Assembly: GCA_030390025.1 (NCBI GenBank)
Contig: CM059432.1
Coordinates: forward strand, 54,810,001 to 54,874,000
DNA: 64,000 bases
Source of the DNA: Squalus acanthias
Lineage: Eukaryota
Direction: 5' to 3'
Shown here: positions 10,361 through 17,358 of the stretch, one piece after another
How positions within the stretch are numbered: position 1 is the stretch's first letter
Layout: every line of letters begins with the position of its first letter
The notes under the pieces: generated by a model
Database searches by the model: none
Told to the model about the DNA's origin: nothing
The model's input: the letters and a program-made list of their open reading frames with translations, nothing else
Program-made: the position numbers and the translations under genes

Positions 10361-12792
10361 CTGAAAGCAGGGAGGTACAAGAGTGGCTTTAGCGTCAGGA
10401 CAGGGGGGCAGTAAGGGAGCAAGGACTAGAGTGATTTAAGACAGATGTGTAGCGCCTGATTTAGCGCTCCAATCACCTCCAGGGGCGATAGAAGCCAAGT
10501 TTGCAGTCGGAGGTGATAATTTGCGCTGGCGCTAAACTTTGCTCCCGGCCGATAATTGCGCCCCAAACGGGGCGATACCGAATTTCTCCCCCTAAGAGTC
10601 TAAATGAGGTAGAGAAGCAAAGGGTATCTCAGGGTACAGATACACAAATCACTAAAAGTAGTGACGCAGGTTAATAAGGCCATAAAAAAAGCAAACAAAG
10701 CACTGGGGTTCATTTCCAGATGGACAGAATTGAAAAGCTGAGAAGTTATGTTAACATTGTATGGAACCTTAGTTAGACCACCCTTAGAGTACTGTGCACA
10801 GTTCTGGTCTCCATATTACAAAAAGCATAAAGAGGCACTGGTGAAAATGTAAAAAAGATTTACAAGGATGATACCAGAACTGAGAGGTTATAGCTATCAG
10901 GAAAGATTGAACAGGCTGTGGCTCTTTTCTCTAGAAAAGAGAAGTCTGAGAGGTGGCCTGATAGGTGTAGAGAAGATGTTTCTACTTGTTGGGGAGACCA
11001 AAACTAGGGGCCATAACTATAAGATAGTCACTAATAAATCCAGTTGGGAATTCAGGGGAAACTTCTTTACCCAGAGTGTGGTTAGAAGGTGGAGCTTGCT
11101 ACCACAAGGAGTAGCTGGGGTGAATAGCATAGATGCATTTAAGGGGAAGCTAGATAAACACATGAGGGAGAAAGGAATAGAAGGATATGCAAATAGAATT
11201 AGATGAAGAGGGAGGAGGCTTGTATGGAGCATAAACCAGTTGGGCCGAATGGCCTACTTCTGTGCCGTACATTCTATGTAATTCTATGTACAACCCTTTG
11301 AGAATTCTGCACTCCTCCAACTCTGGCCTCTTGTGCATCTCCAACTTCCTTCGCCCCACCATTGATGGCCATACCTTCAGGTGTCTAGACCCTAAATTCT
11401 GCCTAACCTACCTATTTGACCAAGCTTTTAATCTTCTGCTCTAATACGTTTCCTCATGTAGGGGGCAGTGTAGAGCTGCAGGGGCAGTGTGGGCCTGCAG
11501 GGGGTGAGGTGGAGCTGGAGTGGGGCCGTGTCCAGCGCCCTGTCGGTGTGGGCCTGGGCCTGGAGCTGCAGGGGGTGGTGTGGAGCTGCAGGGGGCAGTG
11601 TCGAGCACACTGGCGGTGTAGGCCTGCAGGGGGCCGATGTGGGCCTGGACCTGGGCCTGCAGGGGGTGGTGTGGAGAGCCCTGTCAGTGTGGGCCTGAAC
11701 CTGCAGGGGGCGGTGTGGAGCTGCAGGAGACGGTGTGGCCTTGCAGGGTGTAGAGTGGGCCTGCAGGGGGCGGTGTGGAGCTGCAGGGGGTGGTGTGGGC
11801 TTGCAGGGGGCGGTGTGGAGCTGCAGGGGGTGGAGTGGGCCTGCAGGGGGCGGTGTGGAGCTGCAGTGGGTGGTGTGGGCCTGCAGGGGGGTAGTGTGGA
11901 ACTGCAGTCGGCGGTGTCGAGCGCCATGTTGGTCTGGGCCTGGGCCTGAAGCTGCAGGGGGCGGTATGGAGCTGCAGGGGGTGGTCTGGATCTGCAGGGG
12001 TCAGTGTGGGCCTGCAGAAGGTAGAGTGGGCCTGCAAGGGGTGGTGTGGAGCTGCAGGAGGCAGTGTGGGCCTGCAGGGGGCATTGTGGAGCTGCAGGGG
12101 AAGGTGTTGAGTGCCCTGTCAGTGTGGGCCTGGGCCTGGACCTGCAAGGTGTGGTGTGGGGCTGGGCCTGGAGCTGCAGGGCGCAGTTTGGTCCTGCGGA
12201 TGGCGGTGTCGAGCGCCCTGTTGGTGTGGGCCTGCAGAGGGCGGTGTGGAGCTGCTGGGGGCGGTGTGGAGCTGCAGAGGGTGGCGTAGGCCTGCGGGGA
12301 ATGGTATGGGCCTGGACCTGGGCCTGCAGGGAGCGGCATGGGCCTGGACTTGGGCCTGCTGGGAACGGTGTGGTCCTGCAGTGGGCGGTGTGGGCCTGCA
12401 GAGGGCAGTGTGGGCCTGCAGAGGGCAGTGTGGGTCTGGGCCTGCAGGGGGCGGCGTGCACCTGGGCCTGCAGAGGCGGTGCAGACCTGCAGGGCGGGTG
12501 TGGAGCTAGGCCTGGAGCTGCAGGGGGCGGTATGGAGCTGCAGGGGGTGGTGTCGAGCGCCCTGTTGATGTCGGCCTGCAGGGGGCGGTGTGGGACTGGA
12601 CCTGGGCTTTCAGGAGGTGGTGTAAACCTGCAGGAGGCGGTGTGAGCCTGCAGGAGAGAGGTGGAACTGTAGTGGGCGATGTTGAGCGCCCTGTTGGTGT
12701 GGGCCTAGAACTGCAGGGGGCGGTATGGAGCTGCAGGGGTGGTGTGGGCCTGCAGGGAGCGGTGTGGATGTGGACCTGCACTGCAGGTAGCT

Positions 12793-14207
12793 TCCAATTT
12801 CCACCCTTCCCTCACCTTCACATGGTCCATCTCCGACTCTTCCCTTCCCTTCCTCGACTTCTCCATCTCCATCTCTGGGGATAGGTTATTGACTAACATT
12901 CACTACAAGCCCACCGACTCCCACAGCTACCTGGACTACACTTCCTCCCACCCCGCCTCCTGTAAGGACTCTATTCCATTCTCCCAGTTTCTCCGTCTCC
13001 GCCGCATCTGCTCTGATGATGCCACCTTCCATACCAGTGCTTCCGACATGTCTTCCTTTTTCCTCAACCGAGGATTCCCCTCTACCGTGGTCGACACGGC
13101 CCTCGACCGTGACCGTTCTATCTCCCGCACATCTGCCCTCACCCCTGCCCCTCCCTCCCGGAACCACGATAGGGTTCCCCTTGTCCTCACCTTTCACCCC
13201 ACCAGCCTCCACATTCAACGGATCATCCTCCGCCATTTCCGCCACCTCCAGCGTGATCCCACCACCAAACACATCTTCCCCTCACCTCCCCTTTCAGCAT
13301 TCCGCAGGGACCGCTCCCTCCGCGACACCCTAGTCCACTCCTCTACCACCCCCAGCACCCCTTCCCCTTCGCCCGGCACCTTCCCGTGCACGCGCAGGAG
13401 ATGCAACACATGCCCTTATACCTCCCCTCTTCCCACTGTCCAGGGCCCCAAACACCCCTTCCAGGTGAAACAGCGATTTACTTGTACTTCCTGCAATTTA
13501 GTATACTGTATTCGCTGCTCACGATGTGGACTCCTCTACATTGGGGAGACCAAACGCAGATTGGGTGACCGCTTTGCGGAACACCTCCGTTCAGTCCGTA
13601 AGGGGGACCCCGAGCTCCCGGTGGCCTGTCACTTTAATTCACCGCTTCACTCCCACTCTGACCTCACCGTCCTCGGCCTATTACACTGTTCCACGGAAGC
13701 TCAGCGTAAGCTCGAGGAACAGCACCTCATCTTTCGTTTAGGCACGCTACAGCCCTCTGGACTCAATATCGAGTTCAACAATTTTAGATCATAACCTCAG
13801 CTCCAATCACATTTATATTTTATTTTATCCACCCTTTTATTTGTCCCCCCCACCTTTTTTTTCCTCCTAGAAGCTGGCAGCTGTCCTTCATTCTGCCAGT
13901 GGATTTCACACTTCATTCAGCCTTAATCTGTCACATTAACACCACCTCTAGCCTTGCATATCTCTTAATGTCTCTTAATGTCTCTTCATCTCCTCCTTTG
14001 TTCCTTTATCCCCTCCCCCTTTTCCCAGCTTTACCCTGGCCTTAAATCTATTTGATTTCCAGCTCTTCCCAGTTCTGATGAAAGGTCATCGACCTGAAAC
14101 GTCAACTCTCTTTCTCTCTCTACGGATGCTGCCTGGCCTGCTGAGTTTTTCCAGCGTTTTCTGTTGTTATTTCGGATTTCCAGCATCTGCAGTATTTTGC
14201 TATCGTA
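12793..14207 (+). mobile_element. Penelope-like element copy 2 (RT C-terminus + open GIY-YIG domain + pLTR)
   Basis: Open frame to 13794 with NLVYCIRCSRCGLLYIGETKRRLGDRFAEHL...QPSGLN; closely similar to copies 1 and 3; same tail. Confidence 0.93.
14071..14107 (+). ncRNA. Minimal type I hammerhead ribozyme with canonical GUC cleavage triplet
   Basis: AGTT-CTGATGA-(A)AGGTC-ATC-GACCT-GAAAC-GTC-AACT. Confidence 0.82.
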
Positions 14208-16825: not shown

Positions 16826-17358
16826 GCGGGGCTGGCCGGAAGGGGGCAGTGCGGGGCTGGGCCGGCAGGCGGCGGCGCGGGGCTGGGCCGGCAGGGGGCG
16901 TTGCGGGGCCGGGCCGGGCCGGAAGGGGGCGGTGCGGGGCTGGGCCGGCGCGGTGCCGGCAGGGGGCGGTGCGGGTCGGGCCGGCTTGGGGCGGTGCGGT
17001 GCCGGCAGGGGGCGGTGTGAGGCCGGCGCTCCCTCTCCGCCTCCTCCTCCCCTCCCAGAAGTGACGCCATCTTGGAGCGCGTTGTGTGAAGCCGCGGCCG
17101 GCGGAAGGACGATGTTGGTTGGAGGCCCGGAGCCTGCGGTCTGGGTTTGATTTGGTTGCTCGCTCTCCGCTCGGTGTTTGCTCCCTCACTGCGTGGAGCT
17201 GGCGAGGGCAGAGCCGATGGCCGCGCACTAAGCCCGGCCCGGGTCTCGCGGAGCCGCTCCGTCCTCCCGGCTCAGGAAGAGTTGATGAAGTGATGCGGGT
17301 GTAAAGAGAAGACGGAGCCCCGAGTGGAGAGAAGGTGAGCGGGGCCTGGCAAAGCAGT
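16826..17358 (+). promoter_or_regulatory. CpG-island promoter, probably of YES1
   Basis: Very high GC and CpG; repeated GGGGCGG GC boxes; TGACG CRE half-site overlapping YY1-type CGCCATCTT at 17062-17073. Confidence 0.75.
17040..17334 (+). other. YES1: Probable non-coding exon 1 (5' UTR); start approximate
   Basis: Strong donor AAG|GTGAGC (GT at 17335-17336) in the CpG island; vertebrate YES1 has a non-coding first exon and a long intron 1. Confidence 0.6.

Follow-up and report, generated by a model that had tools for sequence, protein, structure and literature searches.

A G-rich repeat ends about 50 bp upstream of exon 1 of YES1 in the 64,000-nucleotide stretch of Squalus acanthias DNA analysed here (the window), and its units resemble CTCF sites lying on a single strand. 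The question raised by this locus is whether the repeat is a working CTCF array, as suggested by the initial annotation, which saw in it a tandem super-insulator or loop anchor, or a minisatellite in which such sites are incidental. From the evidence below, we consider it probable that the repeat is an old, promoter-born and locus-specific minisatellite, mostly neutral, whose CTCF sites are incidental; any real function would most likely reside in the promoter-proximal cluster.

Organization of the locus and of the repeat

The downstream gene was confirmed as YES1 from its 91% identity to shark Yes kinase and from the splice found in RNA contigs. Contigs of runs X8 and X10, provisionally classified as RNA, span 17070/17116-17334 and continue into the YES1 coding exon, while the missing RNA cover upstream of 17070 says nothing about transcription of the array. 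The gene was assigned a CpG-island promoter, given a CpG-rich first exon (CpG o/e of 0.86) spliced to the coding exon. Among the 11 sequencing runs listed, none of which carries a library label, none from another organism had more than an exon-sized share. Small shares (0.05-0.17) were disregarded, X8 and X10 excepted, and the alignments covered 2 of 6 presumed RNA runs and 2 of 5 DNA runs.

The repeat is a 20-bp G-rich minisatellite of about 170 units distributed over 11456-12790 and 14209-17030 (Table 1), the second segment (segment B) comprising 2,822 bp and 117 unit anchors. The units reported earlier, including that at 14528, were all retrieved on the + strand, and the proposed extent of about 4 kb within 11456..17020 holds for the two segments (about 4.2 kb in total), although this interval also contains a 1.4-kb insertion that had not been mentioned. 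Tandem Repeats Finder (TRF) gave a period of 20, e.g., 94 copies with 68% matches in 14403-16366, and the units follow one another head to tail, as in minisatellites with units of about 10-60 bp across at least 0.5 kb. The 170 anchors (53 + 117) include a few hexamer fragments. With a cut-off of three mismatches from the 19-base unit consensus, which excluded about 45 of the 170 anchors from the unit tallies, 125 units were retained, all on the + strand; they represent 125 of the 126 matches in the window, for a shuffle mean of 0.05. The same unit grammar, a 20-mer into which 6-mers and 18-mers are inserted, is followed throughout the array, from the promoter to its far end. The long ORFs across the array are products of a stop-poor repeat. 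A low-depth contig carries a 5-base deletion at 16903 and is too weak to count as length variation.

Table 1. Position of the repeat segments, mobile elements and YES1 exons within the window.
Feature	Position	Strand	Characteristics
Detached satellite remnant	805..885	+	Two compound units (20-mer + 18-mer subunit); aligns with array units
Decayed LINE broken by nested younger elements (TE stack)	1130..11455	+	Separates remnant from segment A
Harbinger-type DNA transposon nested in the stack	6411..10590	+	DDE_Tnp_4 E=1.7e-29 for 6970-7848; ends judged by eye
Minisatellite segment A	11456..12790	+	1,335 bp; 53 unit anchors; 9 intact CTCF-like cores
5'-truncated Penelope-like retroelement inside the array	12790..14208	+	91% mean column identity to copy at 4225-5690
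Segment B, distal CpG-depleted part	14209..16718	+	18 intact cores; block duplications: 201-bp unit and block common to segment A
Promoter-proximal CpG-retaining units	16719..17030	+	Intact CTCF-like core in 9/11; 7 GC boxes
YES1 non-coding exon 1	17070..17334	+	Begins at 17070 or further upstream; within CpG island; splice donor at 17335
YES1 first coding exon	49483..49755	+	ATG at 49491; E=9.7e-43 to shark Yes kinase; matches loose-end sequence of RNA contigs

Within the 64-kb window, the remnant at 805-885 is the only match beyond the array to the unit consensus (1/126) and to the 18-mer subunit pattern (1/13), and it is probably the far end of the ancestral array. Between this remnant and segment A lies a decayed LINE, presumably of L2 type (RVT_1 E=4.5e-6, below the curated cut-off). 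Its pieces at 1130-1560, 5850-6335 and 11290-11455 are collinear on the LINE copy at 52900-54320, the last two joining within one base; the alignment left out 886-1130. Because of the remnant beyond the stack and of the collinear LINE pieces, the TE stack most likely represents insertions into the array. Counting the Penelope-like element (GIY-YIG E=2.9e-4, just below the curated cut-off), at least two insertions interrupt the array. The suggested separation of the CpG island from an upstream TE stack by the array is thus not supported, since repeat units lie beyond the stack and a mobile element lies within the array.

Alternatively, the array could belong to a dispersed satellite family of the shark, one member of which inserted or expanded next to YES1, 805-885 being a separate copy. 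This seems very unlikely, given that there is a gradual transition from the units to the CpG-rich promoter, that the remnant is the only copy elsewhere in the 64-kb window, that a single LINE separates it from segment A, and that no stretch resembling the array was found in the other DNA windows scanned. An Rfam search of 1-20000 gave no match, and neither did a two-unit pattern scanned against metagenomes, a comparison that carries no information on a shark locus.

Resemblance of the units to CTCF sites

The resemblance of the units to CTCF motifs was borne out by pattern searches. A 14-position CTCF consensus had no exact match in the 64-kb window, but 28 of its 29 one-mismatch matches fell inside the array, all on the + strand (shuffle mean of 1.3), as did 85 of the 107 two-mismatch matches, again all 85 on the + strand. 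The published CTCF core CCNNNAGGGGGCGC (PMC10287918) likewise had no exact match, while 15 of its 18 one-mismatch matches in the window lay in the array. With the relaxed core CCNNNAGRKGGCR, 36 of 40 window matches were in the array, and no core was found there on the minus strand. In these pattern searches, the units thus match the core beyond chance, albeit through a consensus without exact match, and an intact core is carried by only 36 of about 170 units. Window-wide shuffles count the copies as independent, whereas a tandem array represents one founding event; by hand arithmetic, the chance of one 20-mer of the unit's composition matching is about 7 in 10,000, and the motif score of the unit is about 18.6 of 26.1 bits with a CTCF matrix, likewise by hand.

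The shared strand was rejected as a sign of function because the repeat is head-to-tail, which makes the single orientation of the motifs automatic. The written strand of the CTCF motif is the forward, downstream-facing one. With this convention and the convergent orientation rule, the latter as described in PMC5846894, the + strand cores would face YES1, in agreement with the initial annotation. In the skate, also a cartilaginous fish, CTCF motifs at TAD boundaries follow an orientation code (PMC10115646). It is conceivable, although unlikely in our view, that the whole array is a working bank of same-direction CTCF sites, comparable to Dxz4 or DXPas34, that loops into YES1, insulates it and derives its strength from copy number. 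The 36 intact + strand cores and the skate orientation code agree with such a bank, as does the dose-dependent insulation by strong tandem sites, but no dose effect occurs for weak sites (both from PMC11828424). Moreover, a 35-bp footprint means that two units can accommodate no more than one CTCF, and the array is split by TEs.

The upstream motif recognized by ZF9-11, which in high-affinity CTCF sites is located 17-18 bases before core C1 on the same strand, appears to be only half present. The TGCAG of the previous unit stands 18 bases before core C1 in 16 of the 36 intact cores, and never at 17 bases. This would correspond to the extended spacing, one base longer, which is reported to be bound slightly more weakly (PMC10287918); the 18-base assignment for the CTGCAGTTCC-like motif was deduced from published descriptions, and in four published sites the spacing is 17, one base below that of the array. 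On the + strand, only the TGCAG half of the CTGCAGTTCC-like motif occurs and the TNCC half is absent, CTGCAGTNCC having no + strand match in the array at up to one mismatch. The T and C specified by ZF9-10 (PMC10484683) are missing in the array units. Besides, the register of the + strand TGCAG results from the unit sequence and its period, and hence is not independent evidence. Most units also show an almost complete upstream motif on their minus strand; it was rejected as support, since it derives from the palindromic CTGCAG and has no intact core in front of it.

CTCF binding is not blocked by methylation at core C12 (PMC10484683), which is the sole core CpG in distal units, the methylation-sensitive C2pG being missing there. 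Hence, methylation alone should not stop CTCF from binding these units, a point in favor of a functional bank. In one version of that idea, the 20-bp period would let each unit serve both as a CTCF core and as the ZF10-11 upstream half-site for the unit after it, giving a self-assembling, methylation-proof super-anchor, bound though methylated. Cartilaginous fish would then recurrently make new, length-tunable boundaries by amplifying a promoter CTCF site into a minisatellite; we give this version little credence.

CpG decay and absence of a selection signature

CpG o/e ranges from 0.15 to 0.41 across the bulk of the array, whereas it reaches 0.58-0.86 at the promoter. Likewise, CG is found at core positions 12-13 in 10 of 11 proximal units versus 35 of 114 distal ones (hand tally), and the unit junction reads GTGCGG at five places, within 16823-16999, versus GTGTGG at 102 places, all before 16767. 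Since CpG is depleted over most of the array, an apparent methylation border lies at its promoter end, methylation being here inferred from CpG loss.

The decay of the core was examined in the 125 units, whose relatedness by duplication means that the tallies are not independent. By hand count, the dinucleotide at core 12-13 is CG in 45 units, TG in 38, CA in 34 and TA in 3, i.e., CpG decay is symmetric, and where the G-run is perfect, TG, which damages the motif, outnumbers the harmless CA (26 vs. 8). Thirty of the 125 units no longer have core C1 (hand tally). The near-invariant G10 is altered in 12 of 125, as often as the weakly specified last three positions (9, 12, and 10). Of the 16 changes at core 9, just 3 lead to the tolerated T; of the 21 at core 8, 12 lead to the tolerated A, which is also the plain transition. 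At core 3, the consensus A occurs in none of the 125 units. Motif positions are consequently not conserved above the rest of the unit, with the exception of the 11 proximal units (9 intact). The distal units thus look methylated and unselected for the CTCF motif, and the absence of this signature argues against a working bank, even if, with 36 intact cores, selection acting on the whole array might leave no trace in single units. Of the proposed super-insulator, motif resemblance and orientation remain, while the lack of any sign of selection, the CpG depletion of the bulk and the low share of intact cores speak against it.

Another G-rich property might also be what matters, such as G-quadruplexes or Sp/KLF-type factors at a promoter-proximal VNTR, the CTCF match being a side effect of the G5 run. 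The GC skew of +0.36 to +0.47, five matches to one strict four-tract G pattern (a single loop layout was searched) and 27 GC boxes in the array, 7 of them in the last 300 bp, point in this direction. However, the CpG has decayed in most of these GC boxes, changes in the G-run are common, and hairpin folding of one 240-nt sample was not above that of shuffles (z = -1.06, G4 being outside the model), making this explanation improbable.

Origin and possible function of the array

We thus favor a promoter-born, mostly neutral minisatellite. The array would have arisen by tandem duplication of a GC-box/CTCF-like motif of the YES1 proximal promoter, a promoter-to-array direction read from CpG polarity alone, as the T/G difference at core 3 offers no polarity. 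Copies pushed beyond the CpG island would have become methylated in the germ line, then decayed and re-amplified in blocks without visible selection for CTCF. With a good core still present in about a fifth of the units (36 of about 170), CTCF can probably bind some of them in vitro, and it may occupy a few of them in vivo as a by-product. The units at 16719..17030 are the best candidate regulatory part of the array. A regulatory role would most likely lie in these last 300 bp, where unmethylated units may supply GC boxes and form a small cluster of same-direction CTCF sites bordering the CpG island on its 5' side.

CTCF ChIP data exist for shark. If CTCF occupies the distal array, this locus would offer a compact natural test of whether insulation is tuned by how many copies of a minimal CTCF repeat are present, and of how methylation-insensitive sites behave within methylated repeat DNA, in a cartilaginous lineage with little 3D-genome data. 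If CTCF is absent, the array would still clearly document how a promoter motif can be multiplied, become methylated and be interrupted by transposons, and it would warn that one chance event is turned into many apparent sites by a satellite that matches a motif.

Comparison with known systems

Among the matches listed, no title was relevant to a shark YES1 promoter repeat, and a search combining CTCF and minisatellite gave no relevant title. CTCF-bearing repeats are already in print for mammals, namely DXPas34, Dxz4 and HRNR. The units of Dxz4/DXZ4 are kilobase-scale, and this tandem repeat is similar to the shark array in carrying a bank of same-direction CTCF motifs. According to PMC5899087, motif orientation directs contacts there, and a conserved motif, CTCF binding and a Hi-C effect on the inactive X have been shown, whereas the shark array consists of 20-bp units with putative CTCF sites.

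DXPas34, at the mouse Tsix promoter, is like the shark array a promoter-adjacent minisatellite of short monomers (34, 31, and 30 bp), each with a CTCF site, and its CpG and CTCF-site content differs strongly between species (PMC3149622). In contrast to the putative sites of the shark array, its binding and function have been tested (same source). The shark unit is 20 bp long and almost motif only, its array is mostly CpG-depleted with about a fifth of units intact, and no sequence homology is claimed. For the human HRNR VNTR, it has been proposed that CTCF sites (two-part motif MA1929.1) are gained by repeat expansion and that copy number tunes local folding and nearby expression (PMC10234305); that repeat is coding and documented by population data, whereas the shark array is non-coding and flanks a promoter. 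Finally, Pcdh and Igh also carry directional arrays of CTCF sites, which act there as insulators; these are separate, spaced sites whose function was shown by editing (PMC7087399), while the shark array is a head-to-tail minisatellite.

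Organization of the array and its link to YES1

The G-rich sequence upstream of YES1 is a minisatellite with a period of 20 bp (TRF), extending over about 4.2 kb in two segments, A and B. The repeat described in the initial annotation is thus confirmed, and the unit that it quoted at 14528 is present in the sequence. Our own splitting of the array gave 170 unit anchors, a few of which are 6-base fragments, with a grammar of one 20-mer and optional 6-mer and 18-mer inserts. Within three mismatches of the 19-base consensus, 125 units were retained, all on the + strand. Besides, TRF detected a higher-order duplication (201-bp unit, 94%), and segments A and B share a block about 400 bp long (84% mean column identity in the alignment).

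The exon at 49491 encodes an 88-residue peptide with 91% identity to shark Yes kinase (E=9.7e-43); the named ones among its 44 matches are nearly all Yes or generic tyrosine kinases. Contigs from sequencing runs X8 and X10, two separate studies of RNA by inferred library type, start at 17070 and 17116, respectively, span the sequence up to 17334 and then run into the first letters of this coding exon. Hence, 17070-17334 is the non-coding exon 1 of YES1. The final repeat core of the array (17002-17015) lies about 50 bp ahead of it, and the CpG observed/expected ratio is 0.86 at 17001-17500, 0.58 at 16501-17000 and 0.15-0.41 across the remaining array. Run X10 carries the label of another organism and matches exon 1 perfectly over 219 bases (17116-17334), which points either to a very closely related source or to a difference in labelling. 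In a DNA contig from run X1, 16 unrelated letters, which presumably resemble another shark repeat, precede 17024; either a chimeric join or an allelic variant could account for them.

Features of the array, the upstream transposable elements and the YES1 5' region
Feature	Positions	Strand	Remarks
Satellite remnant	805-885	+	Beyond the array, the unit and the 18-mer insert match here only; aligns with array units
Transposable-element stack	886-11455		Deeply nested; each element apparently splits the preceding one
AT-rich insert, 1.65 kb	2480-4135		Unclassified; lies in a Penelope-like copy and may belong to an LTR element
Harbinger-type transposon	6411-10590		Nearly intact, terminal inverted repeats; DDE ORF on +, second ORF on - at 8525-9340
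Array segment A	11456-12790	+	
Array segment B	14209-17030	+	
GCCATCTT and TGACG	17058-17075		Just ahead of the RNA contigs' 5' end; taken to be YY1-like and a half-site, a pair presumably typical of housekeeping start sites
YES1 intron 1	17335-49482		32 kb, mostly LINE and Penelope copies
N run	17359-17704		Conceals part of the CpG island
Exact CCNNNAGGGGGCGC match	27686-27699		Only one in the window; intron 1, GC-rich patch near 27186-27700

Insertions into the array

Aligned from 1130 onward, three LINE pieces (1130-1560, 5850-6335 and 11290-11455) follow one another collinearly along a second LINE copy, and the last two join within one base. Penelope-like, CR1-like, SINE-like and Harbinger elements are nested in that LINE, whose RVT_1 match is below cut-off; within the stack, Pfam supports only the Harbinger and Penelope labels. 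The simplest history would be a single LINE insertion into a pre-existing array, later filled to 10.5 kb. The remnant, 10.6 kb upstream of segment A and beyond the stack, could possibly be of separate origin, and that the array itself is a copy of a dispersed satellite is improbable. A was split from B by a further insertion, that of a 1.4-kb Penelope-like fragment sharing 91% identity with a neighbouring copy. Together with the remnant, this insertion indicates that the array is older than the stack and that elements were not kept out. The array had been proposed to separate the CpG island from the stack; instead, the stack most likely lies inside the old array.

CTCF resemblance of the units

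No exact match to CCASYAGRKGGCRS, which we take to be the CTCF core consensus, was found in the window by pattern search. With one mismatch, 28 of 29 window matches lie in the array, all deviating at core position 3 (26 T, 2 G, 0 A), and with two mismatches 85 of 107. All of these array matches are on the + strand, as the initial annotation had stated, and 36 of the 40 matches to the relaxed core CCNNNAGRKGGCR are also in the array. In any head-to-tail repeat, a common orientation follows from the structure itself. Shuffles gave means of 0.8-1.3 core matches, a comparison that overstates the significance of the array counts because the copies descend from one ancestral unit. A random 20-mer of the same composition would match either core pattern about 7 times in 10,000 (hand arithmetic), and hand scoring of the consensus unit on MA0139.1 gives about 18.6 of 26.1 bits. 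The match therefore exceeds what composition would account for, but it counts as a single event next to a CpG-island promoter, and such motifs are common at promoters of that kind. The published core CCNNNAGGGGGCGC, as excerpted from PMC10287918, has 15 one-mismatch and no exact matches in the array.

Several features bear on binding. In the portion of PMC10484683 considered, methylation blocks CTCF at core C2, not at C12. Distal units have T at core 3 and are hence without C2pG, which is found only in the seven units nearest the promoter, and this would favour binding. In 16 intact cores, TGCAG of the preceding unit lies 18 bases ahead of C1, and in none at 17; this register is automatic, since the core contains CTGCAG and the period is 20. 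Excerpts of the literature give a spacing of 17 in four sites (PMC11194110; PMC12885311) and slightly weaker binding with one base more (PMC10287918); the spacing would also count in favour. However, the upstream motif is only half present in the array units: the T and C that ZF9-10 read are absent, and CTGCAGTNCC with one mismatch gave no + strand match in the array by pattern search. With a 35-bp footprint, at most one CTCF would fit per two units. The odds of in vivo CTCF occupancy at one unit or more are roughly even.

Distal decay and the gradient toward the promoter

Decay was tallied by hand in the 125 related, hence non-independent, units, about 45 more diverged anchors falling outside the cut-off. 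Core 12-13 reads CG in 45, TG in 38, CA in 34, TA in 3 and other in 5. TG damages the motif and CA is harmless, yet they are nearly equal, as plain deamination would predict; where the G-run is perfect, TG is ahead of CA, with counts of TG 26, CA 8 and CG 15. C1 is lost in 30 units. Changes at the near-invariant G10 and at G11 (12 each) are no rarer than at the last three positions, which are weakly specified (9, 12 and 10). The tolerated T accounts for only 3 of the 16 changes at core 9. Against neutrality count core 8, where 12 of 21 changes give the tolerated A (also an ordinary transition), G7, changed in only 7 of 125 units, and the CTGCA stretch, with 4-8 changes per position at strong and weak positions alike. 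Overall, this tally gave no sign of selection on the CTCF motif in the distal array. The proposed insulator is partly supported: the single-strand CTCF core resemblance stands, whereas stack separation and motif selection in distal units are not supported; the whole array being an insulator or loop anchor is unlikely, and the distal array probably does not measurably shape contacts.

By contrast, CG at core 12-13 is kept in 10 of the last 11 units (16719-17030) vs 35 of 114 distal ones, and 9 cores are intact there vs 27 in all remaining units. The unit junction reads GTGCGG at 5 places (16823-16999) and GTGTGG at 102, every one before 16767. Because the usual direction is CpG to TpG, the proximal form would be ancestral or protected. 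We infer that the array grew out of the YES1 proximal promoter and that a methylation border lies near 16700-16800, at its promoter end. The array holds 27 GC boxes, 7 of them in 16719-17030. Action via G4 or Sp/KLF, for which five matches to a strict four-tract pattern would speak, is rather improbable. We moderately favour a promoter origin: YES1 promoter sequence would have become a minisatellite, expanded via slippage and block duplication, whose distal copies are methylated and decaying and whose CTCF sites are incidental. Any function would reside in the proximal 300 bp, where GC boxes are joined by a small group of forward CTCF motifs at the island edge.

Comparison with known systems

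In the parts of the cited sources considered, tandem directional CTCF sites insulate at Pcdh and Igh (PMC7087399), a dose effect of such sites requires strong sites in model work (PMC11828424), the copy-number idea was already published for the HRNR VNTR (PMC10234305), and the CTCF orientation code is present in a cartilaginous fish, the skate (PMC10115646). The shark array has the sequence and orientation of a CTCF-site array, and its distal units lack the conservation; it therefore resembles such arrays as a candidate member only. As far as the excerpts describe them, it is built like DXPas34 (PMC3149622) and, on a smaller scale, like Dxz4 (PMC5899087).
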